Positions 8,794 to 63,675 of a stretch of DNA of 64,000 nucleotides are shown one piece after another (positions within the stretch are counted from its first letter, which is position 1; the number at the start of each line of letters is the position of its first letter). The notes beneath the pieces were generated by a model, which was not told where the DNA came from, ran no database searches, and saw only the letters and a list, made by a program, of their open reading frames with translations. The position numbers were made by a program, and so were the translations under genes. This DNA comes from Patescibacteria group bacterium (GTDB taxonomy: Bacteria > Patescibacteriota > Patescibacteriia > Buchananbacterales > UBA6539): positions 1,920-65,919 of the forward strand of contig JBAZMQ010000002.1 of NCBI GenBank assembly GCA_041649675.1, read 5' to 3'.

Positions 8794-8796
8794 AAA

Positions 8797-10125: not shown

Positions 10126-10140
10126 GTAGTTTAAAGAACT

Positions 10141-10170
10141 TATCCCTGCCCCCTTTTTGGGGAGGCAGGG
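10141..10170 (-). terminator. Hairpin CCCTGCC...GGCAGGG between tuf and rpsJ (terminator / attenuator of tuf transcript)
   Basis: G+C-rich inverted repeat with a T/A run, in the 57-nt tuf-rpsJ spacer. Confidence 0.5.
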
Positions 10171-10182
10171 TCATTTTATTAG

Positions 10183-14768: not shown

Positions 14769-14887
14769 TATTTCTGCGGTGGGGAAATTAAATTTTTAAT
14801 AATTAATAATATTTAGATTGCCCTGGTAGTATCTCTGGCAAAAACGGGAAAACTGCTACCGGACATAAAAATTTAAAATTTAGTTAA

Positions 14888-15316
14888 CTATTTTTTTGAT
14901 TCAGCAACATATTTAGCACCATAAAGACTGCGGCCTTGTTTTCTGGCAGTGACTCCAGACGCATCATAAACACCGCGAACAATATGATAACGAACACCTG
15001 GCAAATCTTTAACCCGGCCGCCACGTAACAAAACGACGGAGTGTTCTTGCAAATTATGGCCTTCACCAGGAATATAAGCCGTTACTTCCATGCCATTAGA
15101 CAATCTGACCCTAGCGATTTTCCGTAAAGCTGAGTTTGGTTTTTTTGGGGTGGTGGTTGTAACTTTAACACAAACTCCCCGCTTAAAACCAGCCCCTTTG
15201 GGGTTATCTTTCTTGGTTCGTCTTAAGGTATTAGCAACCAACCGCAAAGCTGGAGTTTTGCTCTTTTTTCCTTTAGATTTACGGCTTTTCTTAATTAATT
15301 GGTTGATTGTTGGCAT
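14888..15316 (-). CDS. rpsL: 30S ribosomal protein S12
   Basis: N-terminus PTINQLIKK...KSKTPALR. Confidence 0.93.
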
Positions 15317-15421
15317 AATTCTTGGTTCTTTTTCCTGAAATTAGGTCTTAAAAACCTGCCCTAAAGGCAGATAAACATAAAGCAATATTAACTAATAATT
15401 TTATAGAAGTCAAGGGCCTGG

Positions 15422-16075
15422 CTAAATACCAAAAAATCTGGCAAACAAATTAAAAATAAAATAAAGGATTGATTCAATTAATGGCATGAACAAAAATAAG
15501 ATCAAAATTGACAAAAAAAGGCCATATTGAGCCATAAATAAAGGATTGCCCAAAGGTGACTTGGCAATTAATTCAGTCACTGGCCTAAAGGTGGTTAGAA
15601 AGTTAAAACCATCAAAACCCGGCAATGGCAAAGCATTAAAAATTGCCAAAACCAAATTAATTTGGAATAGGGCGGTAAATAGAATTACCCCCAGATTATT
15701 CACTGTTATCCCTAAATACTGAGTAGTTATCTTTAAAACTAAAACAGAAAATACGGCAATAACAAAATTAGTCATAACACCAGCCAATGATACCCAGCGA
15801 AAAGCCGCCGCTCCGCCCCGTAAGCGATAAGGGTTGACTGGCACTGGTTTTGCCCAACCAAACATAAATCCGGATTGTGATATATACAAAAGCAGTGGCA
15901 CTAAAATTGAGCCGATCGGATCAATATGAACCAATGGATTAAGTGATAATCGGCCCGAAATTCTGGCTGTATCATCACCAAAATGGTTAGCTACCCAGCC
16001 ATGAGCGATCTCATGTAAAATCACCGAATAAAGAAAGGCAACAATAAAAATTAAAATACTAATTCCTTGAAGCAT
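15422..16075 (-). CDS. Peptidase M50 family (site-2-protease-like) membrane metalloprotease
   Basis: HEIAHGW zinc motif plus NALPLPGFDGF second motif; multiple TM segments. Confidence 0.7.
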   Translation of the reverse strand: MLQGISILIFIVAFLYSVILHEIAHGWVANHFGDDTARISGRLSLNPLVHIDPIGSILVPLLLYISQSGFMFGWAKPVPVNPYRLRGGAAAFRWVSLAGVMTNFVIAVFSVLVLKITTQYLGITVNNLGVILFTALFQINLVLAIFNALPLPGFDGFNFLTTFRPVTELIAKSPLGNPLFMAQYGLFLSILILFLFMPLIESILYFIFNLFARFFGI

Positions 16076-16278
16076 ATTGACATAATAGCATAAGGGCTTG
16101 ATTTTTTACAGCCGCTCTGATATACTGGCTACATTGTTAAAATTTAAACTCTAAATACAAAATCCTAAATTTTAAACAAATCTTAAGCCATAAACTACAA
16201 ACTGGTTTGAAAATTGGAATTTAGAATTTGCGATTTGTTTAGAATTTAAATATTAGAATTTATAATTTATTTACTATT

Positions 16279-16470
16279 ATGCCTAGCTGTGCTATTTGTG
16301 CTCGGTTGCCGCTCAAAGGTCATGCCGTCAGTCATTCCAACATCAAAGTAATCAAACGGCAAAAACTGAATCTGCAAACCAAAACAATTTGTGGTAAAAA
16401 ATTGAAAGTTTGTACCAGCTGTTTAAAGACTTTAGCGAAACCCGCCCTCAAAAATAAAAAAACTAAGTAA
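16279..16470 (+). CDS. rpmB: 50S ribosomal protein L28
   Basis: 63 aa with C.IC...GHAVSHSNIKVIKRQKLNLQ pattern typical of bL28; one of only two plus-strand genes. Confidence 0.75.
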   Translation: MPSCAICARLPLKGHAVSHSNIKVIKRQKLNLQTKTICGKKLKVCTSCLKTLAKPALKNKKTK

Positions 16471-33148: not shown

Positions 33149-33224
33149 TGGTCGGGGTAGTGGGATTTGAACCCACGGCCTCACGCACCCCATGCGTGCA
33201 CGCTACCAACTGCGCTATACCCCG
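33149..33224 (-). tRNA. tRNA-Pro (anticodon GGG)
   Basis: Manual fold of 76 nt: 7-bp acceptor stem with C1:G72 and A73 (the bacterial tRNA-Pro identity); D arm GCGC/GCGT; anticodon loop AT-GGG-GT; T arm GTGGG-TTCAAAT-CCCAC; CCA encoded. Confidence 0.8.
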
Positions 33225-33298: not shown

Positions 33299-33607
33299 CC
33301 GTATATTCTATCTTATCGTTAAAAAAACAAACCTGCAAGATCTCAGGTTTCCAGAAAAATTACGGAACTTCACAAGACTGGTCAAAGGTTTTGGCTTAAG
33401 TTCAGCCGGCCGTGTCAGTAATCCGGGCGGGAAAGACATAAAAGAAATACATCTTATCGCCCAATTAACTGCTTTTGACCTTTTTGGGCTCGCAGATTAT
33501 AGCTTAAAGCTAAAATCAATTTAGATACCCTACTAAAATAGTTTGTCCCAAAACTTTAACCATCGGTGAAGTTCATTTTTATTTTAACATTTAACCAATT
33601 TTTGGTC

Positions 33608-33640
33608 AAAAAAAGAAGCCCAAAAGGAAACCTTTTGGGC
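33608..33640 (-). terminator. Intrinsic terminator after the DAHP synthase gene
   Basis: GCCCAAAAGG-AAA-CCTTTTGGGC flanked by A/T runs (bidirectional design). Confidence 0.7.
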
Positions 33641-33672: not shown

Positions 33673-34794
33673 CTAGGCCTGTTGGCCTCTGTGAGCATTG
33701 TGCTCAGTAATCATGGTAATCAGTTCCGGCACTCGCTCAAGCGGGATTGCCTGATCCTTGTCGCACAAAGCCTCTGCCGGCTTAACGTGAGTTTCAACCA
33801 TGACCACGTCGGGCGAATGCTTTAAGCCGTTCTGTAAATCCTCAAAGACCAGGTCTACCCGACCGGCCATATGAGAAGGGTCAAGACAAACCGGTGCCCA
33901 AGAACGACTGTGCAGCTCGTTGATCCAGGAAAAATTCGGATAGAACCGATGCGGATCATGAGTGTCGACCTTTCTTAAACCGCGAACACAAAAGATGATC
34001 TTTTGGTTGCCCGAAGGAGCACTCTTCTCGGGATCCAATCTCCCATCCTCGTCCCAAAACATCGGACCGTACAAAACCCACCCGGCCAAATCCATGAGTT
34101 CGTCAATTCGCGTCATCGTGAGGCCATGCTTGATCATAACGACAAACTCTTTCTGAAGACCAAGAGCCTCCAGCAAGCAATAGTTCTGGGTTCGGGCTCC
34201 AACCCAAAGGACTATGTCGCCTCTGTAGCTTGTACGATCACGGCACCGGCGGACAATTTCGATATCCGGACTTTCCATCACCTCCATCCAAACTGATCTC
34301 ACGTCATTGGCCGCTGCCGCCCGTAAAAAGTTTTCCAAGCCGGCCTCACCAAAACCCCGAAAACCTTCGGCCTTAGAACGCGGCTTTTTCCAGCCACCCC
34401 GAAGATCTTGGACTCCCAATTTGACCAAACCTTGAACTGTTAAACCAATGTGCTTATCAATGGCACATTGACCGGCAACCAAACGACACGGCTGGCCGGG
34501 ACCAATTAATGACCCACCAACCTCAATGAGATGATGATCACCGCCATTACGCAAGGGACTGACCTGAGACGGCGAAACCCGCAGCACCCGTTCCACGCCA
34601 TCCATCTGGAAAACGTGTTCGGGAATACTGTTGGCCTGCGCCTTACCATCTTTGAGATGGATTAAAACGGCGATAAAATGGACACCAGCCTCAGCTTGAA
34701 CTTGTGGACTAAGGCCGTAGAGAATAGCCTTTTGAACAATGGCTTCGACCCGCGAATCAGTTGCCTGAACGCCGGTAATCATTTGGATAATCAT
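33673..34794 (-). CDS. 3-deoxy-7-phosphoheptulonate (DAHP) synthase, type I-beta with N-terminal regulatory domain
   Basis: RGGWKKPRS...F.G.G, LDPSHMAGR, VMVETH motifs. ~90-aa N-terminal extension before the TIM barrel. RBS GGAGGAAG. Confidence 0.75.
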   Translation of the reverse strand: MIIQMITGVQATDSRVEAIVQKAILYGLSPQVQAEAGVHFIAVLIHLKDGKAQANSIPEHVFQMDGVERVLRVSPSQVSPLRNGGDHHLIEVGGSLIGPGQPCRLVAGQCAIDKHIGLTVQGLVKLGVQDLRGGWKKPRSKAEGFRGFGEAGLENFLRAAAANDVRSVWMEVMESPDIEIVRRCRDRTSYRGDIVLWVGARTQNYCLLEALGLQKEFVVMIKHGLTMTRIDELMDLAGWVLYGPMFWDEDGRLDPEKSAPSGNQKIIFCVRGLRKVDTHDPHRFYPNFSWINELHSRSWAPVCLDPSHMAGRVDLVFEDLQNGLKHSPDVVMVETHVKPAEALCDKDQAIPLERVPELITMITEHNAHRGQQA

Positions 34795-34843
34795 GATACT
34801 CTTCCTCCATTACTTCGTTTCTGCCTTTTGTTTATTCTTCGCA

Positions 34844-36052
34844 CTAGTCCCTGTTCCGAATAATCGGGTAGGAACCAATCACAACAACATTAATCGCAAT
34901 CTTCTTTAGCGCCCAAATCGCTAAGCGTAGCCGCCGACTTTTTTTAATGTGTCCGGCCGCATCGATAAAGAAGACATAGTCACCGAGTTGCTTCTTGGCT
35001 GTCCAAGAAACAATCATTCCCAGGTTCACACCTAAAAGCCAAAAGGGCAATAGCGACCACATCAAACCGCCCGGCTTGTTTGGCGCTTTGAAAAAAATCG
35101 TGGTTTGATCATTACCATTGGGTTTAGGTGCATCTGCACCCAGAATTAAAAACCGTGTGACATTTGTACTGGCTGGCAAATCACCGATATCGGCTAGAAT
35201 GACTTCAAGTCTATCATACTCAGTTGCGGCTTCAGGTGAAGCAATGGCCGCAAGATCATTTTGATCAGATTCGGCAACCATTTTAGCCGCTGCCGCCGTA
35301 CTGGGTGCGTCAATAATTTCCCACTCAGGATGTTGAGCCAAAATTCTTTCGCACTGCCCGCGAGGCTGATGGTGAGTAACTACCGACTTGATATCTTCTA
35401 AGCACGCGCCGGCTTTGCCAAGCAACATGTGCTTAATTGGAATTTCAACTTGGCAAACAATTCGCAATCGTAAATTAGTCGCGGCATTGACAACAAAGAA
35501 ATTCACAGTCGGATAGACAAAAGCGCCGGCGGCATTTTCAAACGGTGCCACAATCATCTCGATTAAACCTTGACCAAAGGCTTCAAGCAATTCCGGAATC
35601 GATGTGTATAGCACCAATTCATAATCATTCGGCTCCAGACCTTTGTAAGCGAAATAGCGCCTAGCGGCACTAACTGAAAAGGTACCAGCCGGCCCTAAGC
35701 AACCAAGCTTTATTTTTTGCGTTTGCATTACTGTTTCTCCCGTAAATTCCTGTTTTGACTTATCGTCAACCGAAGGTAATGGTACTTCCGGCCTTAACTT
35801 ACAAACAATTCCTAAGACCACCTGGCCCCAAAAATCAAAGGGACACTCCCCTTTGCCGCGTGGATGAACATAGACGCAACCGACGTCAACGCAACCGCCC
35901 TTCAACCGAGACTTACTTCGTAACTGACAGTGAGTCAGGTAAGGTACCAAGCCAATCCATACAAATTCAATCACTTGTACGGTTTGACGAGGACAGACTA
36001 TCTCTTGCGTCGAGCCAGGCCTTATTTCGTCAATACTGACTACTCTTGCCAT
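34844..36052 (-). CDS. pheA: Prephenate dehydratase (PDT + ACT). The PDT domain begins at MQTQKIKLGCLGP (start 35728); the ORF is open for a further 108 Cys-rich codons upstream to an ATG at 36052
   Basis: PDT motifs LGPAGTFS and ACT-like C-terminus. A tiny uORF (MRFITT) with a strong SD ends 13 nt before 36052; GGGAG lies 9 nt before 35728. Start is uncertain. Confidence 0.75.
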   Translation of the reverse strand: MARVVSIDEIRPGSTQEIVCPRQTVQVIEFVWIGLVPYLTHCQLRSKSRLKGGCVDVGCVYVHPRGKGECPFDFWGQVVLGIVCKLRPEVPLPSVDDKSKQEFTGETVMQTQKIKLGCLGPAGTFSVSAARRYFAYKGLEPNDYELVLYTSIPELLEAFGQGLIEMIVAPFENAAGAFVYPTVNFFVVNAATNLRLRIVCQVEIPIKHMLLGKAGACLEDIKSVVTHHQPRGQCERILAQHPEWEIIDAPSTAAAAKMVAESDQNDLAAIASPEAATEYDRLEVILADIGDLPASTNVTRFLILGADAPKPNGNDQTTIFFKAPNKPGGLMWSLLPFWLLGVNLGMIVSWTAKKQLGDYVFFIDAAGHIKKSRRLRLAIWALKKIAINVVVIGSYPIIRNRD

Positions 36053-36154
36053 AACCGTATCCTTTTTTAAGTTGTAATGAACCTCATGAGCAATCCTCCT
36101 TACTACCCAATTTCTAACCCCAAAATAATCAGGGACAAATATTGAGTAATAAAC

Positions 36155-36185
36155 AAAAAAACTGACCCTTAATTGGTAATCAGTT
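36155..36185 (-). terminator. Attenuator terminator of the aromatic leader (ACUGAUU-loop-GGUCAGU + U7)
   Basis: Stem plus U7 ~50 nt after the leader-peptide stop. Its 5' arm can instead pair with GUCAGUUGG at the leader's end (antiterminator). Confidence 0.6.
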
Positions 36186-36240
36186 GATTGCTTGTTTTGA
36201 GTTTTTTGCCCTATTTTTTTGCTATACCCAAACCAACTGA

Positions 36241-36300
36241 CTACCGGTCAGTAAAATAGAAACCGAAATAATACCAGTTGTTGGTTTGCAATCTTGTCAT
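36241..36300 (-). CDS. Leader peptide MTRLQTNNWYYFGFYFTDR (aromatic-rich) for pheA-DAHPS
   Basis: 7 of 8 consecutive codons are Trp/Tyr/Phe. The stop codon sits in the loop of hairpin ACUGAC-CGGUA-GUCAGU (36236-36252). Confidence 0.65.
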   Translation of the reverse strand: MTRLQTNNWYYFGFYFTDR

Positions 36301-36311
36301 AGGATATTTGT

Positions 36312-36340
36312 AGATTAACGTAATTCTTCAAATTTGTCAA
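36312..36340 (-). promoter_or_regulatory. Promoter TTGACA-N17-TAATCT driving the aromatic leader (near-leaderless)
   Basis: Same architecture as the other four modules: -35 TTGACA, -10 TAAnnT-like, ~10 nt to the ATG. Confidence 0.5.
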
Positions 36341-36349
36341 ATATCCAAT

Positions 36350-36383
36350 AAAAAGAAGCCCTAAATCATTTGACTTAGGGCTT
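36350..36383 (-). terminator. Intrinsic terminator after proB
   Basis: AAGCCCTAA-N-TTAGGGCTT + T run; abuts the -35 of the next module. Confidence 0.65.
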
Positions 36384-37127
36384 TTGGGCTAGAAAAGTGG
36401 TTCCGGGAGTACGGCCAGGGCCAAGGATCTTAGTGATGACATTTGGCTTACTGCCTTTGGCCAGATGAACGGTAATACCGGCCCTGGTAGCTTTTTCAGC
36501 GGCGATAAGCTTACTACCCATACCATTACGGTTAGAAACTTTCACACCTTCCACGCCGGCTAAGGCCTTGATGGCATCGTCAATTACCGGAACAATCGAA
36601 ATTACTTTGAGCTTACGGTTCTGAAGTCCATCAACGTCGGAAAGTAAAATCAACTTACTGGCGCCAATACCAATGGCAACAATCGCGGCCAAAGCATCGT
36701 TATCTCCCTGATGCTCCATCGCCTTAATTTCCAAAGCGGAAACCGAATCATTCTCGTTAAGAACCGGAACAATTCCGATTTCCAGTTCCCGCCGAATTAA
36801 AGCAATTGTCTTTGGGTGTTTGAAGTCTTGATGTGTCCCCTGTATCTGACTGGCAATCAACCCCCGTTTGCGAAAAGCTTCAATCCAATAAGCCATCAGC
36901 TTTGGTTGGCCAACAGATGCTGCCACCTGTTTATCAATGATTTTTTCTCCGCCCGCGACACCATTACCACAGGCAACCGCGCCTGAAGTCACAATAACGG
37001 GCCAATAGCCTTGCTGACGCAAACTGGCAATCTGTCTGGCTAACGCCCTCAAAATTCTCCTTTTGATCTTGCCGTTTTCGTCCACCAACACATTGGTTCC
37101 AATTTTAATGACCACTATCTTTTCCAA
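36375..37127 (-). CDS. proB: Glutamate 5-kinase (no PUA domain); probable TTG start at 37127 after GGAGGA
   Basis: IVPVLNENDSVSALEIKAMEHQGDNDALAAIVAIGIGASKLILLSDVDGL matches the ProB core. The ORF-track extension to 37208 runs through the attenuator terminator. Confidence 0.75.
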   Translation of the reverse strand: MEKIVVIKIGTNVLVDENGKIKRRILRALARQIASLRQQGYWPVIVTSGAVACGNGVAGGEKIIDKQVAASVGQPKLMAYWIEAFRKRGLIASQIQGTHQDFKHPKTIALIRRELEIGIVPVLNENDSVSALEIKAMEHQGDNDALAAIVAIGIGASKLILLSDVDGLQNRKLKVISIVPVIDDAIKALAGVEGVKVSNRNGMGSKLIAAEKATRAGITVHLAKGSKPNVITKILGPGRTPGTTFLAQKP

Positions 37128-37156
37128 AAGAGCATCCTCCTTTCGTTTGGTTAAAC

Positions 37157-37181
37157 AAAAAACAGCCCGGAAGTTGGGGCT
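37157..37181 (-). terminator. Attenuator terminator of the proline leader (AGCCC-loop-GGGCU + U6)
   Basis: The loop and 5' arm CCCCAACUUCC are perfectly complementary (11 nt) to GGAAGUUGGGG at 37212-37221, just after the leader stop (antiterminator). Confidence 0.6.
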
Positions 37182-37220
37182 ATTCTCTATCTTTTTATTA
37201 CAGCGCAAAAACCCAACTTC

Positions 37221-37271
37221 CTAAGGCAAAGTTGGTGGGACTGGTAAAGTTGAGTTAAAGCGTTTGTTCAT
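37221..37271 (-). CDS. Leader peptide MNKRFNSTLPVPPTLP (Pro-rich) for proB
   Basis: 4 Pro in the last 8 codons; the ATG is 6 nt after the -10. Confidence 0.6.
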   Translation of the reverse strand: MNKRFNSTLPVPPTLP

Positions 37272-37277
37272 ATCAAT

Positions 37278-37305
37278 ATCTTAGCAGATTTAAAAAATTT
37301 GTCAA
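37278..37305 (-). promoter_or_regulatory. Promoter TTGACA-N16-TAAGAT for the proline leader
   Basis: Sequence match; the -35 directly abuts the upstream terminator. Confidence 0.5.
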
Positions 37306-37335
37306 AAAGAAAAGGATTAAGCAAAGCTTAATCCT
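37306..37335 (-). terminator. Intrinsic terminator after leuA-like gene 1
   Basis: AGGATTAAGC-AAA-GCTTAATCCT + U-rich run. Confidence 0.65.
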
Positions 37336-37360
37336 TAAAATACAAAGAACACGAACAATC

Positions 37361-38929
37361 TTACTCGGCTTTAACCGTTGGGATCGGCGCATGCGCCAAA
37401 TGGTTTAGAGCGGCTACCATGGCCTGAACGCAAGCCTCAATAATGTCAGTATTAGCACCGCGACCAAAAGCAACCTGGCCATCATGAGCGATTTTGATCA
37501 TCGCCAACCCCAAAGCTTCCACGCCACCAGTGCTTTTACCAACATCAAAGTCTTCCAAAACAACTTCACCGGGCCAGAGATCACCGCGGACTAATGCTGT
37601 CTTAACCGCCTGCCAAACCGATGAGACTGGTCCGTTACCGCTACCACTGGCTTCATATTCAAAACCGTTTCTGCCTAGTAGCACTGTTACCGACCGTACA
37701 TTATCCAACCGATGATACTGGACTCGCTTGACTGTCAACAAATGCTGACTCTGAGCCGATGTGGCCACACAAGCTTCCTGCATCAACATATGTAAGTCAG
37801 CATTGTGAACTAAGGCCTTGGTTTCGGCCAACTGCAGAAAAAGCCGGTAAACTTCGTTTAACAAGTCGCCTTCAGCCTGATAACCAAGTTGATCCAAACG
37901 AGTCTGCAAGCCTTTGCGACCGGAACTGGTGCTAAGCGGAAAAGACTCACCAACCCAACCAACGCTTTGAGGCGGCATGATCTCGTAGGTATTGGCATGC
38001 TTGATCATACCATCCTGGTGAATACCCGAAGAATGGGCAAAAACGTTGCCACCAACCACCGGGGTTGTGGGTGGAATCGGCCGTTTAATAATGGCTGCCA
38101 ACAAGCGTGCCGCTGGCCCAAACTGGGTGCTGTCAATTGGACAATCCAACCGATAATACTCAGCCTGGAGCTGCAACGCCTTTACGAATGGCTCAAAACC
38201 AGTATTACCCGCTCGTTCACCAATACCGCAAATCGTGGTCTCGGCTTGCCGGGCACCATTCATGACCGCTGCCAACGAATTGGCAACAGCTAACGCTAAA
38301 TCATTATGGCAGTGACAAGATAGGATAATCCTCTTTTCTACCACTTCACGTAGCGCTGCGATTTGGGCAAACATCGAACCATACTGTTGAGGTTGAGCAA
38401 ACCCAACGGTATCAGGCAAGTTGATTATACCGGCGCCAGCCTCAATTACTGCTAAAACGATTTCCTTCAAGAAACCAATATCACTGCGGCTGGCGTCTTC
38501 AGCGGAAAACTGCACCTGACCAACATGGGCAAAGCTGCAGGCAAACTTGACCGCCTCAACTGCCCTAGTGATTACCTCGGCCGGCTTCATCTTCAGCTTG
38601 AATTCCATATGCTGCGGACTGGTAGCAATGAAGGTGTGGATGCGACCCGGCTGAATAGCATTCTGCAGCGCTTCAGCCGCACGCGCAATATCTTTTTCAT
38701 TGGCCCGGGCTAATGCTGAAATGCGAGCGCCCTGAACCTGGCCAGCCGCCAGACGCACAGCAGCAAAATCAACGTCCGAAGCAATCGGAAACCCGGCTTC
38801 AATAGTGCAAACTCCCATCTTGGCGAGTTGTATTGCCAAAGTGAGCCGGTCTTCGGCTGACTGGCTGCAACCCGGTGATTGGGCTCCATCTCTACAAGTC
38901 GTATCATGAATCTCAATAACCTTAACCAT
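37361..38929 (-). CDS. leuA: 2-isopropylmalate synthase (LeuA family, with C-terminal regulatory/dimerisation domain)
   Basis: N-terminus TTCRDGAQSPG; HxH metal site SCHCHNDLALAVANSLAAV; LeuA_dimer-like C-terminus; RBS AAGGAG. Confidence 0.8.
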   Translation of the reverse strand: MVKVIEIHDTTCRDGAQSPGCSQSAEDRLTLAIQLAKMGVCTIEAGFPIASDVDFAAVRLAAGQVQGARISALARANEKDIARAAEALQNAIQPGRIHTFIATSPQHMEFKLKMKPAEVITRAVEAVKFACSFAHVGQVQFSAEDASRSDIGFLKEIVLAVIEAGAGIINLPDTVGFAQPQQYGSMFAQIAALREVVEKRIILSCHCHNDLALAVANSLAAVMNGARQAETTICGIGERAGNTGFEPFVKALQLQAEYYRLDCPIDSTQFGPAARLLAAIIKRPIPPTTPVVGGNVFAHSSGIHQDGMIKHANTYEIMPPQSVGWVGESFPLSTSSGRKGLQTRLDQLGYQAEGDLLNEVYRLFLQLAETKALVHNADLHMLMQEACVATSAQSQHLLTVKRVQYHRLDNVRSVTVLLGRNGFEYEASGSGNGPVSSVWQAVKTALVRGDLWPGEVVLEDFDVGKSTGGVEALGLAMIKIAHDGQVAFGRGANTDIIEACVQAMVAALNHLAHAPIPTVKAE

Positions 38930-39043
38930 GGCGTTTACTCCTTAATGTTTCTGCCTTTTACCTCTGCCAACCGTGGCAAAAGTTTTCTTAACTAACCTAA
39001 ATTGGAAAGGACATGTCTATCCCACAAACAGCGCGAGATAAAC

Positions 39044-39068
39044 AAAAAAGCCTTCCTGAGTGGAAGAC
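39044..39068 (-). terminator. Attenuator terminator of the leucine leader (GUCUUCC-ACUCA-GGAAGGC + U6)
   Basis: Its 5' arm CUUCCAC is complementary to GGGUGGAAGG (39113-39122) inside the leader-ORF tail (antiterminator). Confidence 0.6.
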
Positions 39069-39097
39069 TGACTGGTATTTATCTAATGCTATTTTAG

Positions 39098-39184
39098 CTA
39101 GACACTAGTAAACCTTCCACCCTGGGGCTGGCTTAACAACAACAAACCTAGCAAGAGATTAGATTGGGGAAGGTTATATTTCAT
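39098..39184 (-). CDS. Leader peptide MKYNLPQSNLLLGLLLLSQPQGGRFTSV (Leu-rich) for leuA
   Basis: 7 Leu in 8 consecutive codons. The start of the ORF (ACCUUCCCC) can pair with GGGUGGAAGGU (1:2 pairing). Confidence 0.65.
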   Translation of the reverse strand: MKYNLPQSNLLLGLLLLSQPQGGRFTSV

Positions 39185-39194
39185 AGATAATAAT

Positions 39195-39223
39195 AACTTA
39201 CACTACCGGTTTAATTTTGTCAA
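39195..39223 (-). promoter_or_regulatory. Promoter TTGACA-N17-TAAGTT for the leucine leader
   Basis: Sequence match; 10 nt to the ATG. Confidence 0.5.
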
Positions 39224-39240
39224 TAATTATAGCTATTTAG

Positions 39241-39276
39241 AAAAAACCTATAGCTTCGCTTGGGCAAAGCTATAGG
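39241..39276 (-). terminator. Intrinsic terminator after the 90-aa gene
   Basis: CCTATAGCTT-N10-AAGCTATAGG + U6. Confidence 0.65.
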
Positions 39277-39305
39277 TTAGCAATTAAGGTACAATTCCTC
39301 TTTGG

Positions 39306-39578
39306 TTAGGCTAGGCCGTAGGACTCTAACACCATCTGCCGGTTAATCATCGATGGACCAACAACCGAACCGGTAAAAATCAAAACCTCTGGTCCTTGCA
39401 ATAAGGCCACAACGCGGCAAGAACCGCCAACGCCTCGGTTAAACTCAAGACAATGCTGGTCAGTAGAGCCGTTAACCCTTAACCCACCGCCTGGCCTAAC
39501 TTCAATTCTGACTCCTTCATAGATAGTAGAACTGCCCGGCCCTACCGGCACTCGTTTGGTTGGTAATGGCTTTTCCAT
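39306..39578 (-). CDS. Hypothetical 90-aa Gly-rich protein under the Val-rich leader
   Basis: Strong RBS AAGGAG; no recognisable domain; high G+C like its neighbours. Confidence 0.5.
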   Translation of the reverse strand: MEKPLPTKRVPVGPGSSTIYEGVRIEVRPGGGLRVNGSTDQHCLEFNRGVGGSCRVVALLQGPEVLIFTGSVVGPSMINRQMVLESYGLA

Positions 39579-39626
39579 AGTAATACTCCTTAGTTTGTTC
39601 TGCCTTGTTAATTTGCGGAAATAAAC

Positions 39627-39650
39627 AAAAAACTAGTCCTTTTAGACTAG
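39627..39650 (-). terminator. Attenuator terminator of the valine leader (CUAGUC-UAAAAG-GACUAG + U6)
   Basis: Regions 1-4 are CUAGUC/GACUAG/CUAGUC/GACUAG. The 1:2 hairpin (39694-39710) lies within the leader-ORF tail. Confidence 0.6.
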
Positions 39651-39677
39651 CTGGCTGTTTTGCTTTCTTGCTACTGC

Positions 39678-39755
39678 TTAAATACCAAACCACCTAGTCT
39701 TATGACTAGTTACGACTACGACAACGCTCAAGATTTGGCAAGCAATAGATTTCAT
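39678..39755 (-). CDS. Leader peptide MKSIACQILSVVVVVTSHKTRWFGI (Val-rich)
   Basis: Five consecutive Val codons (GTT GTC GTA GTC GTA). Confidence 0.6.
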   Translation of the reverse strand: MKSIACQILSVVVVVTSHKTRWFGI

Positions 39756-39761
39756 AAACTC

Positions 39762-39791
39762 AGCTTAGCAAATTCCAAAAAGACTTGTCAA
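39762..39791 (-). promoter_or_regulatory. Promoter TTGACA-N18-TAAGCT for the valine leader
   Basis: Sequence match; 6 nt to the ATG. Confidence 0.45.
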
Positions 39792-39837
39792 ATATTAGCA
39801 ATTCGTATGTGCGTATTCGTAACGCTATTTGCATACT

Positions 39838-39873
39838 AAAAAAAGACCGACTACTGAGAAACTCAATAGTCGG
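39838..39873 (-). terminator. Intrinsic terminator after LeuA/CimA-like gene 2
   Basis: GACCGACTA-N-TAGTCGGT + U6. Confidence 0.65.
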
Positions 39874-39890
39874 TTTGAAATCAAAGGACA

Positions 39891-41438
39891 TTACTGGTGG
39901 TGGTTTTGGTTGCAGATGTTAATGGCTGCTTCAGCCGCATAAATTGCCGCCATCACCTGGTCAGTATCCAAGCCAACGGTTTGGAATTCGCCCTCACCAT
40001 TTGGCCCTTTCCAGCGGATATTGGCTTGCACAATAGCCGCATAAGTTCCGCCAGGCGGAATCTTGAGATCGTAGTCAATTAGCTTGGGTACTGAAATCTT
40101 ATGCTGCTTGGCCCACTTGACCAAGGCGTTCATAAAAGCATCAAATCCGCCATCACCATGAGCGGAAATCTCATATTGCCGCTTATAATAAACGATAGTA
40201 GCTGCAGCGGTTGCCCGGCGACCAATCGTTGACTGGGTCGTGGCATGCTCGACTCGAAAAACAATCACGTCAGGCCGATTCAAGACTTCAGCAATAATGT
40301 AAGGCAGGTCAGCAATGGTTACCGGCTTACCTTCATCGCCCAGTTTGGTGACTCTAGTAGAGACAGCATTGATTTCTTCGTCATTCAGAGTCAGGCCAAA
40401 ACGGGCAGCGTTACTGCGAATACTAGCCTTACCGGAAAGTTTGCCAAGAGAATGCTCAACTCTAATGCCTAAACGGCCAGCCGTCAGACATGGATGAACA
40501 TAGAGCCCGGCCTTAAGATCACCATCAACATGGACACCGGCGGTGGTAACGAAAACATTGCCAGCGATTGGTTTGCTCGGCGACACTCGTCGACCAGACA
40601 TCATGGCAACCACTTGGCTAGCCGGGCGAAGGTGAGCTTCTTGCACTCCGGTGCAAAAACCGCGCAGATGATCGGTAATACCCACTACCACCTCATCCAA
40701 AGCCGCGTTGCCGGCTCTTTCGCCTAAGCCATTAACGGTTAAGTGAACACCAGAGATAGCCCCAGTTTTAACCGCCGCCAACGAATTGGCAACAGCCAAA
40801 CCGTAGTCATTGTGACCGTGAAAGTCATAGCGAAGCTTAGGCTGCCAGCGACTAGTTTGAGTGATAAAGTCAGCAACCTGCCAAGGACTTAAAACGCCCA
40901 TGGTGTCACAAAGCATTGCTCGGCTAATCGGCAACTTAGCCAATCCGGCCAAAAGTTTTTTAACATACTGAGGCGAATTAAGCATGCCTTGAGACCAATC
41001 CTCCAGATACACATTAACCATCAAGCCGTGAGAAATAGCATACTTAACCGTTATTTCAATGTCTGCCAGATGCTGCTCTAAACTCTTGCGTAACTGGCCT
41101 TCGCAGTGCTTAAGCGAACCTTTGCACAGCAAGTTCATCACTTTGCCGCCACCACTCCTGATCCAGTCAACCGACTTTTTGCCGTCAACAAAACCAAGCA
41201 CTTCAATTCGATCGGCAAAGCCATGTTTGGTGGCCCACTCCATAACCGTAGCCAGCATCTGCTTTTCACCTTCAGAAACCAAAGCCGATGTCACTTCAAT
41301 ACGATCAACCATTAGTTGGGTTAAGGCATTGATGACATAAGCCAATTTCTGCTTGGGCCGAAAACTGACACCCGGCGTTTGTTCTCCATCACGCAAAGTG
41401 ACGTCAGCAACTTCAATTTGTTTCTCTTTCCTTGACAT
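39891..41438 (-). CDS. LeuA-family synthase paralog, likely (R)-citramalate synthase CimA (isoleucine branch) given its Ile-rich leader
   Basis: N-terminus DVTLRDGEQTPG; HGHNDYGLAVANSLAAV; LeuA-type C-terminal domain. The CimA-versus-IPMS assignment is inferred from the leader. Confidence 0.7.
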   Translation of the reverse strand: MSRKEKQIEVADVTLRDGEQTPGVSFRPKQKLAYVINALTQLMVDRIEVTSALVSEGEKQMLATVMEWATKHGFADRIEVLGFVDGKKSVDWIRSGGGKVMNLLCKGSLKHCEGQLRKSLEQHLADIEITVKYAISHGLMVNVYLEDWSQGMLNSPQYVKKLLAGLAKLPISRAMLCDTMGVLSPWQVADFITQTSRWQPKLRYDFHGHNDYGLAVANSLAAVKTGAISGVHLTVNGLGERAGNAALDEVVVGITDHLRGFCTGVQEAHLRPASQVVAMMSGRRVSPSKPIAGNVFVTTAGVHVDGDLKAGLYVHPCLTAGRLGIRVEHSLGKLSGKASIRSNAARFGLTLNDEEINAVSTRVTKLGDEGKPVTIADLPYIIAEVLNRPDVIVFRVEHATTQSTIGRRATAAATIVYYKRQYEISAHGDGGFDAFMNALVKWAKQHKISVPKLIDYDLKIPPGGTYAAIVQANIRWKGPNGEGEFQTVGLDTDQVMAAIYAAEAAINICNQNHHQ

Positions 41439-41545
41439 AGACTGCTATCCTCCATGACGCCCTAGCGTCTTGTTTCTGCCTTTTTCCAAATCAATGAATT
41501 GCTAAAGAGCGTCTTACTAAAACTACTGGTTCAAGCAAGACAATC

Positions 41546-41574
41546 AAAAAAGCCTTCCGAGTGGAAGGCTTTTT
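41546..41574 (-). terminator. Attenuator terminator of the isoleucine leader (GCCUUCC-ACUC-GGAAGGC + U6)
   Basis: Perfect 7-bp stem. The antiterminator partner GGGUGGAAGC is at 41608-41617, and the 5' end of the leader ORF CUUUCCACC gives 1:2 pairing. Confidence 0.65.
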
Positions 41575-41592
41575 GTATCGTCTAACTTGATG

Positions 41593-41673
41593 TTATCTCA
41601 TAAGAAAGCTTCCACCCTGAGGCTGGCTAATAATGATAATGCTGATAATAATGTTTTTTCTGGTGGAAAGCAT
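41593..41673 (-). CDS. Leader peptide MLSTRKNIIISIIIISQPQGGSFLMR (Ile-rich)
   Basis: 7 Ile in 8 consecutive codons. The tail SQPQGG is shared with the Leu leader. Confidence 0.65.
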   Translation of the reverse strand: MLSTRKNIIISIIIISQPQGGSFLMR

Positions 41674-41687
41674 AATTGTATTTTTCT

Positions 41688-41716
41688 ATCTTAAAGGATT
41701 ACCCAAAAAAAGTCAA
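41688..41716 (-). promoter_or_regulatory. Promoter TTGACT-N17-TAAGAT for the isoleucine leader
   Basis: Sequence match; ~14 nt to the ATG. Confidence 0.5.
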
Positions 41717-41942: not shown

Positions 41943-42119
41943 TTAGCTGATATGATCATCAACGAATTTAATCAGGTCTTTTTCTAAAACACGATAAGTT
42001 TTGTGGCCAATTTTGGCTGCTCGTAATTTTTTCGAACTAACCCAACGGTAAACCGTCTTTTGGCTTACCTTCATAATCTTGGCGACTTCCTCAAGCGTTA
42101 AAATTCCGTAATTAGACAC
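41943..42119 (-). CDS. Small excisionase-family helix-turn-helix DNA-binding protein (58 aa, GTG start)
   Basis: LTLEEVAKIMKVSQKTVYRWVSSKKLRAAKIGHKTYRVLEKDLIKFVDD matches the excisionase/MerR-type HTH pattern. Not in the ORF track because it is under 60 aa. Confidence 0.55.
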   Translation of the reverse strand: MSNYGILTLEEVAKIMKVSQKTVYRWVSSKKLRAAKIGHKTYRVLEKDLIKFVDDHIS

Positions 42120-52845: not shown

Positions 52846-54171
52846 CTATAAATCTAAGTACCTTTTCAATTCCCTTGGCGTGACTTCAGTTTTCTGTTCA
52901 TCAATTTCTATGTTTTTAGCATCAATGAATCTATCTAAAGTATGTTTAGTAATTGAATTGATGATTATTTCATCTTTATTTAATTCATCAATCGCTTCTT
53001 GAAGCGAGCCTGGCAGGCTAGATATTTTTAACTCTTGCTTTCTGGTGCTGTCTAAATGATAGATATCTTCTTCAACTGCCTTAGACAACGGGATGTTATT
53101 TTCAATTCCGTCTAAACCGGCCTCTAAAATGGCGGCAAAAGCCAAATAAGGATTACACGACGGATCAGGCGATCGAAGTTCAACTCTGGTGGATTGCTCA
53201 CGGCCGGGCGTAAACCGCGGGATTCGGATAAGGGCCGAACGATTCATTTGGGCCCAGCAAATATTAACCGGGGCTTCATAACCCGGAATCAATCTTTTGA
53301 ACGAATTGGTAGTTGGGTTGGTTAAGGCCGTAAAACTTCGGCTATGTTTGAGTAATCCAGCAATAAACTGATAGGCAATCTTTGACAACTTGTAACCATT
53401 ATTATCTTCGTAAAACAAATTATTACCTTTTTGGTCAAATAAGCTTAAGTGAACATGCATACCTGATCCATTAATGCCGGCAAATGGTTTTGGCATAAAG
53501 GTCGCATTAACACCATAGCTTTGCGCAATCGCCTTGATAGTAGTTTTCAAAGTAATAATATTGTCAGCAGTATTTAAGGCATCAGCATAACGAAAATCTA
53601 TTTCATGCTGACCAACGGCTACCTCATGATGTCCAGCTTCAATTTTTATGTTTAACTCAGATGAAGCCTTTATTACATCTTCCCTAATTTTTGAAGCAAC
53701 ATCAAAAGGCGAGAAATCAAAATAGCCACCGTAATCATGAGGTACCGGAGCTAAATTACTGTCTTTCTGCAAAAGAAAAAATTCTAGTTCAGCGCCAACA
53801 TTTAAAACATACCCTTTTTCTTCTGCCTTTTTCATGGCTTGGCGTAAAATGTAACGCGGGTCGCCGCTAAAGGGTTTTAAATCCGGCCCATAGACATCAC
53901 AGATAATTCTCGCCGCCTTATTATCTTTTGTACTCCAAGGTAAAGTGCAATAAGTTTTTGCATCCGGCATTAGCAGCTGATCACTCTCGGCGATTCTAGC
54001 AAATCCTTCAATTGACGAACCATCAAACCAGATCCCTTTTTCCAAAGCCCCGGGCAACTGCTCGGTCGGAATAACGACATCTTTGGGTACGCCCAAAATA
54101 TCGGTAAACTGCAAATGAATGTACTTAACATTGTCTTTTTCTACTTTTTCTAAAAGTGTTTCTTTGCTCAT
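52846..54171 (-). CDS. glnA: Glutamine synthetase type I; start at MSKETLLEKV (54171); ORF track over-extends to 54276 through the promoter
   Basis: GS beta-grasp and catalytic domains; FDGSSIEGF and other GS-I motifs. Confidence 0.9.
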   Translation of the reverse strand: MSKETLLEKVEKDNVKYIHLQFTDILGVPKDVVIPTEQLPGALEKGIWFDGSSIEGFARIAESDQLLMPDAKTYCTLPWSTKDNKAARIICDVYGPDLKPFSGDPRYILRQAMKKAEEKGYVLNVGAELEFFLLQKDSNLAPVPHDYGGYFDFSPFDVASKIREDVIKASSELNIKIEAGHHEVAVGQHEIDFRYADALNTADNIITLKTTIKAIAQSYGVNATFMPKPFAGINGSGMHVHLSLFDQKGNNLFYEDNNGYKLSKIAYQFIAGLLKHSRSFTALTNPTTNSFKRLIPGYEAPVNICWAQMNRSALIRIPRFTPGREQSTRVELRSPDPSCNPYLAFAAILEAGLDGIENNIPLSKAVEEDIYHLDSTRKQELKISSLPGSLQEAIDELNKDEIIINSITKHTLDRFIDAKNIEIDEQKTEVTPRELKRYLDL

Positions 54172-54216
54172 AGTTAATTGTTTCCGCCATAGGCGGAAAT
54201 TGTTAATTGTTAAACT

Positions 54217-54274
54217 AAAAAAAGGCGTCAAATTAGAGGACGTCTTCGTCAAACTTCTGACACGCCGTTGTGTC
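54217..54274 (-). promoter_or_regulatory. glnA 5' leader: hexaloop hairpin GACAC-AACGGC-GUGUC overlapping a candidate terminator GGCGU...ACGCC + U7
   Basis: The loop has A1/G4 as in ANTAR-bound hairpins. The hairpin's 3' arm doubles as the 5' arm of the terminator. A GAF-ANTAR gene is immediately upstream. Confidence 0.45.
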
Positions 54275-54280
54275 ATCTAT

Positions 54281-54307
54281 ATATTAGCATAACTGGAAAA
54301 TTTTGCA
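54281..54307 (-). promoter_or_regulatory. glnA promoter TTGCAA-N16-(TGc)TAATAT
   Basis: Extended -10 TGnTAATAT and -35 TTGCAA on the minus strand. Confidence 0.5.
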
Positions 54308-54335
54308 AGGTTGAGATGTGGATATCTTAACCAAA

Positions 54336-54432
54336 ACCCCTCACCCACTCAGTAAAACTTAAGTCCCTCTCCCCGCTTGAGGCGGGGAGAGGGTGGTCGC
54401 CTCGAGCTTGTCGAGAGGCGACCGGGTGAGGG
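54336..54432. repeat. Second copy of the G+C-rich nested-palindrome element. On the minus strand it ends GGGTGAGGGGTTTTGGTT and so also acts as the terminator after the ANTAR gene
   Basis: Outer IR CCCCTCACCC/GGGTGAGGGG. Inner hairpins CCCTCTCCCCGC-TTGAGG-GCGGGGAGAGGG and GGTCGCCTC...GAGGCGACC. Confidence 0.75.
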
Positions 54433-54435
54433 GCC

Positions 54436-55140
54436 CTACTTGATCACTTCTTGGGCTAAAATAATCGCCTCAGCCACTTCTTTTAGCGACCGACGCTTAT
54501 CCATACTTTTTTTAACTAAAAGCCGATGAGCCTCCTCTTCAGTCAAACCGCCGTTTTTCATCAAAATCGCCTTGGCCTTGTTAATCAATTTTTGGGTCTC
54601 CAAAGCTTCTTTTAAAACATTAGTTTCGGAAATCAATCTTGAGACTTCCAAAATTCCGCCGATTTGTTTAGCAATGGTTTCTAAAAAGCTGATTTCTTTT
54701 TTCTGATATTTTTTGGATTTTTTGTGCTGAACGTTAATGACGCCAATCACGCTGTTTTTAAAAATAATGGGTACGGATAAAAAACCTTCAAATTTATCTT
54801 CGGGTAAACTGGAAAACAATTTGAACCGCTTATCTTCATAAGCTTTGCTAAAAATTGCTACTGATTTTTTGGTTTCCGCTACCCAGCCGGTAATACCTTC
54901 ACCAACTTTCATTTTAATCTTAGCTAAATTGGAATGATGCGGATTTTGTGAGGCTTTTAAAATTACTTCATCGCCAGAAATTAAATAAATAAAACAAGAA
55001 TCAGCTTTGGTGATTTTACCAATAATTTTTGCAATATTATTCAAAATTTCTTTCAAATCAAAACCGTTGCCGATGGTATCAATAATCTCCTGCAAAATCG
55101 CTAAATTGTTTTTTACGTCTGAATTTTGATCCTTAGACAT
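54436..55140 (-). CDS. GAF-ANTAR RNA-binding antitermination regulator
   Basis: N-terminal GAF-like domain. C-terminus EALETQKLINKAKAILMKNGGLTEEEAHRLLVKKSMDKRRSLKEVAEAII is an ANTAR motif. Confidence 0.75.
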   Translation of the reverse strand: MSKDQNSDVKNNLAILQEIIDTIGNGFDLKEILNNIAKIIGKITKADSCFIYLISGDEVILKASQNPHHSNLAKIKMKVGEGITGWVAETKKSVAIFSKAYEDKRFKLFSSLPEDKFEGFLSVPIIFKNSVIGVINVQHKKSKKYQKKEISFLETIAKQIGGILEVSRLISETNVLKEALETQKLINKAKAILMKNGGLTEEEAHRLLVKKSMDKRRSLKEVAEAIILAQEVIK

Positions 55141-60002: not shown

Positions 60003-60542
60003 TCATTGATTGATTATAGTTTTTACAGCTATCTGTCGTCTAGTGGCTAAAAATAAAACCGCTTCATATGCGCCAAACAAGGCTCCGGTGTAAACTAAAT
60101 CGCTTAGCAAAGTGGCCCTAAAAAACGGCAAAGCCGCAATAAAACAATGACTCAAGCCGGCTAAATTTTTGGCATACCAAGGAGAAAATTGCCAAACCGC
60201 TAAGTTAGTAACGGCAAAAAACAAAACTGAGGCAAAAACACTGGCGGCAAATATTGTCTCAAAACTCTTATATTTTTTCAACTGGCTGGCCAAAAGACCA
60301 ATTATCAAATAACTGCCATAGACTGCTGCCATTAACGGCCAAGAATAAAAACCAATAAAAAAATCGCCAATTAGCATTGTCAGAGCCAAAACTGGCAAAA
60401 CATACTTTCGACCCAAATAAAACCCAGCAAACAAAGAAATGGCCGCAATCGGCGCAAAATTGCCAACGTGAGGCAATAACCGGCAAACAATTCCCAAAGC
60501 CACCAAAAAAATAGCGGCAATAATTTTAGTTCTTGTGTCCAT
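60003..60542 (-). CDS. ECF-transporter S-component-like membrane protein (candidate cobalamin permease)
   Basis: ~180 aa, 5-6 TM helices, typical S-component size. In the riboswitch-controlled locus. Confidence 0.45.
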   Translation of the reverse strand: MDTRTKIIAAIFLVALGIVCRLLPHVGNFAPIAAISLFAGFYLGRKYVLPVLALTMLIGDFFIGFYSWPLMAAVYGSYLIIGLLASQLKKYKSFETIFAASVFASVLFFAVTNLAVWQFSPWYAKNLAGLSHCFIAALPFFRATLLSDLVYTGALFGAYEAVLFLATRRQIAVKTIINQ

Positions 60543-60549
60543 ATAATTT

Positions 60550-61536: not shown

Positions 61537-61542
61537 AAATGA

Positions 61543-63600: not shown

Positions 63601-63675
63601 TTTGTCAACGCTATCGTATAGGCTAATTAGAATATTAGAACTTTTTAATTACCCATATCGCAATAGCACTTCATC

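Follow-up and report, generated by a model that had tools for sequence, protein, structure and literature searches.

In enterobacteria, amino-acid attenuators (trpL, pheL-pheA, leuL-leuABCD, ilvL, thrL, hisL) combine a leader open reading frame (ORF) carrying regulatory codons with alternative 1:2, 2:3 and 3:4 hairpins and an intrinsic terminator. Buchnera carries amplified trpEG and leuABCD plasmids, whose higher dosage overproduces amino acids for the host, and keeps the full pathways. Patescibacteria (Candidate Phyla Radiation) are regarded as host-dependent amino-acid auxotrophs. For enterobacteria, pheL is treated in PMC3082878 and the general attenuation mechanism in PMC1183508. In Corynebacterium glutamicum, small leader peptides occur in the 5' untranslated regions of trpE, leuA, ilvB and aroF, with a presumed role in attenuating transcription as amino-acid levels change (PMC3890552). 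Here, we describe a locus at 33.1–42.1 kb of a 64-kb stretch of a Patescibacteria group bacterium genome (GenBank assembly GCA_041649675.1, contig JBAZMQ010000002.1, positions 1,920–65,919; the whole stretch is called the window below). In our reading, which sequence and predicted RNA structure support well, it consists of leader-peptide attenuators through which a lack of Ile, Val, Leu, Pro or aromatic amino acids would switch on committed-step enzymes and small proteins. In the searchable literature, the attenuator papers on Corynebacterium and Actinobacteria were the only precedents, and we found no earlier description of the Patescibacteria locus.

Leader peptides and predicted alternative RNA structures

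The locus lies on the minus strand and comprises five transcription units, each with, in order, a promoter, a leader ORF that is rich in one amino acid and has no Shine-Dalgarno site, a terminator/antiterminator region and the cargo (Table 1). The leader peptides are MLSTRKNIIISIIIISQPQGGSFLMR (Ile), MKSIACQILSVVVVVTSHKTRWFGI (Val), MKYNLPQSNLLLGLLLLSQPQGGRFTSV (Leu), MNKRFNSTLPVPPTLP (Pro) and MTRLQTNNWYYFGFYFTDR (aromatic, that is Phe/Tyr/Trp). Across the 64-kb window, seven same-class residues out of eight are reached by the aromatic, Leu and Ile leaders only, and 20 shuffles gave 0–3 ORFs at ≥6/8, a count in which 7/8 was not taken separately. The Val and Pro leaders are weaker on this measure, yet they are conserved in L066, a related locus described below. 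The leader ORFs start 6–14 nt past the -10 box of TTGAC(A)-N16-17-TAAGAT-like promoters, and the cargo genes have strong Shine-Dalgarno sites. Considering this short distance and the missing Shine-Dalgarno site, the leader ORFs are probably translated in a leaderless or near-leaderless manner.

A hairpin and U-tract lie 3' of each leader, and a strong terminator closes each cargo gene. An independent scan found 24 terminator-like sites in the window (11.7 ± 2.9 expected), with the strong minus-strand sites located behind leaders and behind genes; it recovered 3/5 leader terminators and all of the gene-end terminators. When folding was constrained by a ribosome footprint on the first regulatory codons, an antiterminator replaced the terminator in all five units, and a footprint at the leader stop codon restored the terminator, again in 5/5. 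In the minimum-energy structure, the antiterminator is formed by an upstream segment that pairs with the 5' arm of the terminator. An antiterminator and terminator sequence is common to the Ile and Leu units. No leader, T-box or 6S family of Rfam matched at the locus. An apparent T-box-like motif in a related locus (L093) found no support.

In the mechanism that we propose, a sigma-70-type promoter would start a transcript whose first feature is a short leader ORF full of codons for one amino acid. With ample charged tRNA for that amino acid, the ribosome would reach the stop codon, the terminator hairpin and U-tract would form and transcription would stop. If the ribosome stalls at the regulatory codons, the upstream segment would pair with the terminator 5' arm and RNA polymerase would enter the cargo gene. 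Five independent ribosome-mediated attenuators of this kind would form one modular amino-acid-starvation locus, and in four of the five units the predicted cargo is a flux-controlling enzyme of the cognate pathway that bears a regulatory domain.

The first-pass annotation had paired every one of five enzymes with a leader peptide of its own. This holds for the Ile, Leu, Pro and aromatic units. The 3-deoxy-D-arabino-heptulosonate 7-phosphate (DAHP) synthase has no leader of its own; its gene begins 49 nt behind that of prephenate dehydratase (PDT) with no terminator between, and the two are predicted to be co-transcribed from the aromatic unit. The same annotation had taken the cargo to be enzymes only, which had to be given up, as a sixth cargo, a 90-aa protein (orf90), lies behind the Val leader.

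Table 1. Window coordinates of the locus features, listed in the direction of transcription
Feature	Position	Strand	Basis and details
HTH_17 small DNA-binding protein	41943..42119	-	Pfam HTH_17 1.9e-15; upstream edge of locus; L092 homolog lies between NDK and Ile leader
50-aa ORF with hydrophobic segment	41763..41915	-	Called gene; no Pfam match; similar peptide in L092
Ile attenuator	41546..41716	-	Promoter 41716-41688; leader ORF 41673-41593, 7 Ile codons; terminator 41574-41547; cargo CimA
(R)-citramalate synthase CimA, Leptospira type, with C-terminal regulatory domain	39891..41438	-	Pfam; NF042433; 3ble 323 bits; 3f6g
Val attenuator	39627..39791	-	Promoter ~39791-39762; leader ORF 39755-39678 (VVVVV); terminator 39652-39631; cargo 90-aa ORF
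orf90, 90-aa protein	39306..39578	-	No Pfam or NCBIfam match; cargo of Val attenuator
Leu attenuator	39044..39223	-	Promoter ~39223-39195; leader ORF 39184-39098, 7 Leu codons; terminator 39069-39049; cargo LeuA
LeuA, 2-isopropylmalate synthase with LeuA_dimer regulatory domain	37361..38929	-	NF002086 545 bits (cut-off 532); 3rmj 340 bits
Pro attenuator	37157..37305	-	Promoter 37305-37278; leader ORF 37271-37221 (PVPPTLP); antiterminator/terminator, T-run end at 37157; cargo ProB
Glutamate 5-kinase ProB, amino-acid-kinase domain alone, no PUA	36375..37127	-	Pfam AA_kinase; true start TTG 37127
Aromatic attenuator	36155..36340	-	Promoter ~36340-36311; leader ORF 36300-36241 (WYYFGFYF); terminator ~36185-36155; cargo PDT and DAHP synthase
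PDT with ACT fold (residues ~112-400)	34844..36052	-	Pfam PDT; 108-aa N-terminal extension 35729-36052
DAHP synthase, type I-beta with N-terminal regulatory-type domain	33673..34794	-	Pfam DAHP_synth_1 barrel; PDB 1rzm/4grs alignment keeps Cys, His, Glu, Asp, KPRS
Structured RNA, ~210 nt	33329..33609	-	RNA 33576-33360; own promoter 33609-33581; terminator 33350-33329
tRNA-Pro(GGG)	33149..33224	-	Downstream boundary of locus

Cargo enzymes and small proteins

Every ORF of at least 100 aa in the window was annotated. Comparisons with Pfam, NCBIfam and PDB confirmed the five enzymes that had been assigned from the letters alone, along with their minus-strand coordinates, except that the start of ProB, earlier placed at 37208, was moved to the TTG listed in Table 1. 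The enzymes had been described as first committed, feedback-regulated steps. They are committed or flux-controlling, with the qualification that PDT and LeuA are branch-point enzymes and not entries from central metabolism; regulatory domains are present, so that the description of feedback stands at the domain level, with PDT as a departure (see below). Judging from the alignments, the catalytic residues are intact in DAHP synthase, LeuA, CimA and ProB.

The DAHP synthase scores below two NCBIfam cut-offs (NF006421, 145.8 vs 335; TIGR01361, 120 vs 268) and belongs to a distinct clade, as 17 matches (50%-identity cluster representatives) at E ≤ 1e-30 are followed by a clear score gap to the canonical enzymes. 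Down to 37% identity, this clade is invariant in its KPR motif and at K137, R139 and the metal ligands C110, H308, E334 and D345, and its N-terminal domain also has conserved positions. Its named members come from Patescibacteria and Candidatus (Ca.) Jacksonbacteria, one of them on a 1.03-Mb contig. LeuA has HMGL, HCS_D2 and LeuA_dimer domains by Pfam and aligns to the Neisseria isopropylmalate synthase at 340 bits, with RDGAQ instead of RDGEQ. CimA scores best with NF042433 (full-length match of 548 bits; cut-off 950); it aligns to the Leptospira citramalate synthase 3ble at 323 bits, and its regulatory domain aligns to 3f6g. HxH/D and GERAGN motifs are present in both LeuA and CimA. Six of the nine residues that we take to line the Ile pocket are identical in CimA, and the presumed pocket positions that differ are Y430F, T464Y and P493T. 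Relatives of CimA labelled Patescibacteria or Parcubacteria are 50–62% identical to it. ProB (TIGR01027, 179.8 bits vs a cut-off of 186) aligns to E. coli glutamate 5-kinase (2j5t/2w21) at ~128 bits, keeps KxG, SGA and DND and has a 4-residue insertion. The insertion is near the counterparts of E. coli D107 and E143, known feedback-resistance positions, both of which are kept.

PDT scores 194.8 bits against NF008865 (cut-off 219) and keeps T299-R300-F301 (TRF), E172-N173 and S251-T252-A253. Its AlphaFold2 (AF2) model, in which an ACT fold is predicted, has a predicted local distance difference test score (pLDDT) >90 at residues 112–400 and ~40 at residues 1–103. In relatives, the L092 PDT has HSIP at the position of the ACT signature ESRP, and the PDT-like proteins of L069 and L078 have no ACT domain and have TTF in place of TRF. 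The 108-aa N-terminal extension has no relatives and no confident fold. A weak resemblance to a 94-aa ORF of L067 was seen, and the extension was also considered as a relative of orf90, with no similarity on comparison. A GTDB genome scan with PDT returned matches of ≤36% identity only, and neither PDT nor orf90 had a relative above 37% identity among 5.8 billion proteins. The lack of close relatives had suggested a singleton island, which the CimA and DAHP synthase searches overturned. The closest PDT from outside Patescibacteria (P0002) sits in an ordinary sporulating Firmicute context and was uninformative.

The orf90 protein is 38% identical (E 2e-12) to a 98-aa ORF behind the L066 Val leader (L066 3834-4130), and no other relative was found among the 5.8 billion proteins. 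Its AF2 single-sequence model is all-beta (pLDDT 65), and a Foldseek search of PDB returned no match with E below 0.1. The Val leader of L092 heads a 112-aa ORF unrelated to orf90. A second family, of ~150–200 aa (the 154-aa family), is encoded 3' of the aromatic leader and 5' of DAHP synthase at five loci (L066 11306-11770, L080 9381-9980, L081 1561-2148, L083 9426-9983 and L092 8640-9098); the two members scanned, from L066 and L083, had no Pfam match. This family is missing from the window, where PDT bears the N-terminal extension instead. Further small cargo proteins in relatives are a 69-aa ORF headed by a Tyr-rich leader (..SAYYYAYK..; L074 ~3500-4004), a 108-aa ORF headed by a second Ile leader (L069 9246-9760) and a 68-aa ORF headed by an Ile leader at the place expected for CimA (L092 4942-5350).

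Related loci in other Patescibacteria

The pairing of leader and cargo is conserved in L066, L069, L071, L074, L075 and L080–L093, the last group being annotated in part only. L066, on a 272-kb contig, has the Ile, Val, Leu, Pro and aromatic leaders in the order of the window. Its Ile leader MTSTSRNIIIGIIIISQPEGGSLSTL heads a CimA that is 62% identical to that of the window, and its Val leader heads the 98-aa orf90 homolog. The LeuA behind its Leu leader is of another type, with 28% identity to that of the window, and is a non-orthologous replacement. The Pro leader MFKRNNPTLPVPPSLP, near-identical to its window counterpart, heads ProB (53% identical), and the aromatic leader MQTIRVNNWFFNFYFFTGR is followed by three small ORFs and then DAHP synthase (62% identical). 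A tRNA-His-like sequence (Rfam tRNA 37 bits; ARAGORN anticodon GTG) lies between the Val terminator and the 98-aa ORF (L066 3703-3786). Pairs of ABC-2-type transporter genes (ATPase and permease) were found inside the L066 locus (8695-10252) and near the L069 CimA unit (14645-16467).

L092 is syntenic with the window, in the order ComEC-MBL-response regulator-NDK-HTH_17-small ORF and, at the other end, tRNA-Pro(GGG). Between these flanks it has Ile, Val, Leu and aromatic leaders and encodes LeuA, a 154-aa-family protein, PDT and DAHP synthase. In L069 and L071, Ile leaders head solitary CimA genes. An aromatic-rich leader lies upstream of clade DAHP synthase genes in at least 12 of 16 JGI metagenome loci, and likewise in L066, L074 and L075. 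Leu leaders also occur in L066, L080 and L092; LeuA adjoins the aromatic unit in L080, L081 and L092, and PDT precedes DAHP synthase in L078 and L092. In L093, anthranilate-synthase-type genes (TrpE/TrpG type, Chorismate_bind and GATase; 7416-9517) lie directly 5' of an aromatic leader and DAHP synthase and bring a further committed step into this neighborhood. They have no trpDCFBA nearby and no clear Trp leader upstream of them. One relative contig has a SerA-like dehydrogenase and a class-V aminotransferase (SerC-like) near CimA, as identified by Pfam domains.

The locus ends at a tRNA-Pro(GGG) gene, which is a conserved boundary or hotspot: on the same strand and 3' of DAHP synthase or CimA units, it recurs in five independent loci (in relatives, L069 12242-12312, L071 2610-2683, L081 4063-4139 and L092 11844-11919). 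On either side of the window copy are GC-rich imperfect palindromes, and a 20-nt inverted repeat around it prolongs the acceptor stem. Between DAHP synthase and this tRNA lies a predicted structured RNA, found in 6 distinct loci and each time directly 3' of a clade DAHP synthase gene (elsewhere L066 13052-13270, L081 3476-3692, L089 1356-1569, L092 11262-11478 and L079 from 1783). RNAalifold gave 66 pairs, 25 of them with compensatory changes. Its fold, in which a long helix closes the structure below a large internal bubble and apical stems, is like that of 6S RNA, and no Rfam family matched it.

The motif AAGGCAGAAA/C was seen 20–35 nt 5' of the start codons of DAHP synthase, LeuA, orf90 and CimA (minus strand; 34818-34827, 38948-38957, 39597-39606 and 41473-41482). 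These four are the only matches inside the island, out of nine in the whole window, and inspection by eye of the corresponding L066 and L092 regions did not reveal it.

Almost all genes of the window are on the minus strand. Outside the locus, they encode ribosomal proteins, EF-Tu, EF-G, pilin-like and giant surface proteins, a PAS histidine kinase, response regulators, NDK, ComEC, S-adenosylhomocysteine hydrolase, purine-salvage enzymes, glutamine synthetase, a GAF-ANTAR regulator, sugar epimerases, a release factor and a cobalamin-riboswitch-controlled operon. The glutamine synthetase gene adjoins that of the GAF-ANTAR RNA-binding regulator (52846-55140, minus strand), which suggests that nitrogen assimilation in this genome is controlled by antitermination. 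The adenosylcobalamin riboswitch (63422-63613, minus strand) heads an operon (60003-63372) for DUF4430, prenyltransferase/cyclase-like and DUF6580 proteins, which probably serves cobalamin acquisition.

Possible roles, origin and known systems

The role that we favor, at about an even chance, is that these enzymes serve as starvation-inducible valves in the cytoplasm of the bacterium itself: the attenuators would open the committed steps, and the remaining steps would lie elsewhere in the genome. Each enzyme is predicted to be induced by shortage of its own amino acid, which is sensible only if its activity raises supply. Prephenate, needed by PDT, and 2-ketoisovalerate, needed by LeuA, are pathway intermediates, so the upstream steps can be argued to exist in the same cytoplasm. 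Relatives also have some amino-acid metabolism, to judge by the SerA- and SerC-like genes near CimA and the TrpE/TrpG-type genes of L093. Together with this supply-type switch logic and these intermediate needs, selection on catalysis, the retained regulatory domains, the instability of glutamyl phosphate and the Corynebacterium precedent favor pathways inside the cell, a conclusion we hold about as readily as its opposite.

Several observations weigh against such valves. As the first-pass annotation had stated, no downstream pathway gene is present: aroB-K, leuBCD, ilv, proA, proC and trpDCFBA are all missing from the annotated ORFs of the window, and no later pathway genes were found in the fully annotated L066, L069, L071, L075 and L076. 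In most bacteria, leuA, proB and trpE stand in operons with later steps, and Patescibacteria are reported to be without most amino-acid biosynthesis. Modules vary among relatives, as L092 is without CimA and ProB and L066 without PDT, and this coming and going would be odd if each module opened a pathway that is essential and otherwise complete. Some Ile leaders, and those for Val and Tyr, govern small uncharacterized proteins and not enzymes. Lastly, the window PDT departs from 119/119 homologs at six sites (E176G, G177A, D184N, E201Q, R350W and P351T), which cover both its catalytic and ACT parts; the last two turn the ACT signature ESRP into VSWT. Conservation of the regulatory residues had been proposed as a check: ProB keeps the two positions named above, and the window PDT does not retain the ACT ligand-site signatures (GAL..., ESRP). 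The PDT changes, along with the loss of the motif or of the ACT domain in related Patescibacteria PDTs, argue for some functional drift.

Alternatively, the later steps could be truly missing, and shortage of one amino acid would then turn on no more than the step that is feedback-limited in the host or in neighbors. Intermediates or enzymes would be exchanged, the host or community pathway would be pushed past its feedback and the symbiont would harvest the end product. A part in this traffic could fall to the small proteins and to the ABC exporter of related loci. We consider this unlikely. The missing later-step genes fit it, as do the solitary DAHP synthase and CimA genes in typical Patescibacteria neighborhoods, including a Ca. 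Jacksonbacteria genome and the 1.03-Mb contig. So do the TrpE/TrpG-type genes of L093, which stand beside DAHP synthase without trpDCFBA, and the transporter genes inside or near the L066 and L069 loci. The cargo enzyme is always a regulated committed step, even where a non-orthologous enzyme fills the place (LeuA of L066 vs that of the window), and PDT, having lost its feedback signature, may be insensitive to end product. Patescibacteria are, moreover, episymbionts with poor biosynthesis. However, glutamyl 5-phosphate is by established chemistry too unstable for exchange, and PDT and LeuA require intermediates that an auxotroph would not have. CimA, LeuA and DAHP synthase retain regulatory domains, which a deregulating agent would not need. 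No signal peptide or secretion feature was evident at the N-termini as read, no predictor having been run, and the evidence for missing later steps covers only part of any genome. That Patescibacteria unable to complete these pathways would use leader-peptide sensors of tRNA charging for starvation-triggered, amino-acid-specific metabolic manipulation of a host or consortium, turning on for each amino acid in turn just the gateway enzyme and small effector proteins, is an idea we rate as unlikely.

Less probable still, and in our view doubtful, is that some or all of the enzymes have been co-opted as amino-acid sensors or buffers, or as makers of signaling metabolites, with their dosage tuned by attenuation. 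In favor are the departures of PDT at six otherwise invariant positions, its orphan N-terminal extension and the L069 and L078 relatives that have lost ACT and carry TTF. DAHP synthase, PDT and ProB also fall under the NCBIfam equivalog cut-offs, and uncharacterized small proteins are placed under the same type of switch. Set against this, the DAHP synthase clade shows no change at its catalytic residues despite deep divergence, LeuA and CimA resemble ordinary active enzymes by sequence, and PDT itself retains TRF, E-N and S-T-A in a confident PDT fold. A switch that responds when the cognate amino acid runs short suits supply and not sensing.

The first-pass annotation had also called the locus an island, a term that needs qualification, although the locus is distinct in composition. 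The window has ~36–40% G+C, and the 33.6–41.5 kb stretch is above the rest at 46–50%; G+C at third codon positions (GC3) is 0.43–0.53 in the six island genes (orf90 included) vs 0.27–0.41 in flanking genes. The ends are a tRNA gene and the HTH_17 (excisionase-like) gene, and two features used as marks of genomic islands, a deviating composition and a neighboring tRNA, coincide here. The island proteins are 53–62% identical to those of L066 vs 27–45% to those of the syntenic L092, and the flanking proteins are 45–74% identical to L092. Nevertheless, a recent foreign island or assembly chimera without an adapted role, possibly mobile-element or phage cargo, is very improbable, considering that the same locus and flanks, junctions included, are also present on an independently assembled ENA contig, that no integrase was found among the called window genes and no att-type direct repeats at the island ends, that the leaders are conserved, the promoters are like others in the window and all ORFs are intact, and that the HTH_17 gene, the small ORF and tRNA-Pro(GGG) also flank the homologous L092 locus. 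Phage cargo in particular was dropped because IMG/VR held no relative of the DAHP synthase clade; the window has no phage genes either.

As the same flanks surround the homologous L092 locus, the site is likely ancestral. No empty site was seen, the only syntenic relative found being L092, where the site is occupied; there, island and flanks have the same high GC3, and in L066 the island genes have a GC3 above that of the embedded ABC transporter. The kept position in L092 and the recurrence of the modules across Patescibacteria make the locus, as far as these comparisons reach, a lineage feature and not a unique foreign insertion. The high GC3 of the window island and its closer kinship to L066 than to L092 suggest exchange among related Patescibacteria. 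We infer that the locus was ancestral at this site and that the window copy was replaced by recombination from a higher-GC relative.

If the pathways are complete, these organisms would be more self-sufficient than assumed, and the locus would be a compact natural example of committed-step switches. If the pathways are incomplete, it would be an unrecognized route by which a symbiont manipulates shared metabolism. By sequence and comparison, at least one Patescibacteria lineage is predicted to link ribosome-stalling amino-acid sensing with committed steps of the Ile, Leu, Pro and aromatic pathways. Whether or not the pathways are complete, the leaders would be ready reporters of which amino acids limit uncultivated cells, and they flag small proteins (the orf90 family, the 154-aa family and the Tyr- and Ile-controlled ORFs of relatives) as candidate parts of the amino-acid economy.

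The mechanism itself is known. The apparent novelties are that it occurs in Patescibacteria, the leader ORFs of leaderless layout, the pairing of ProB with a Pro leader and of CimA with an Ile leader, the gathering of committed steps of unrelated pathways in one locus beside tRNA-Pro(GGG), and the small cargo proteins. Among the enzymes, the DAHP synthase resembles that of Thermotoga maritima (1rzm, 3pg9), as the barrel and part of the N-terminal ferredoxin-like domain align and the Cys/His/Glu/Asp site and KPR(S/T) are kept; it differs in its ~30% identity, a ~20-residue insertion and its separate clade. CimA aligns over its full length, Ile-binding regulatory domain included, to the citramalate synthase of Leptospira interrogans (3ble; 3f6g/3f6h), but it falls below the narrow NF042433 cut-off and has an Ile leader peptide upstream. 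As in Buchnera, a small-genome symbiont would use a feedback-limited committed step as a flux lever; the difference is that control in the window would be transcriptional and starvation-induced, presumably for the bacterium's own benefit. With the enterobacterial attenuators, the window units share a leader ORF with codon runs, alternative hairpins and an intrinsic terminator. However, the enterobacterial leaders have Shine-Dalgarno sites and mostly govern whole operons, whereas the window leader ORFs start close behind the -10 box, govern one or two genes each and match no Rfam leader. The closest likeness in the placing of the switch is to C. glutamicum, where it also sits on the committed step, with leuA and aroF (for DAHP synthase) among the genes concerned. 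C. glutamicum, a prototroph, has complete pathways and its units are scattered, whereas the Patescibacteria units are packed in one 8-kb locus which, with none of the later steps in the window, adds the Pro-ProB and Ile-CimA pairs and a Val-controlled small protein.

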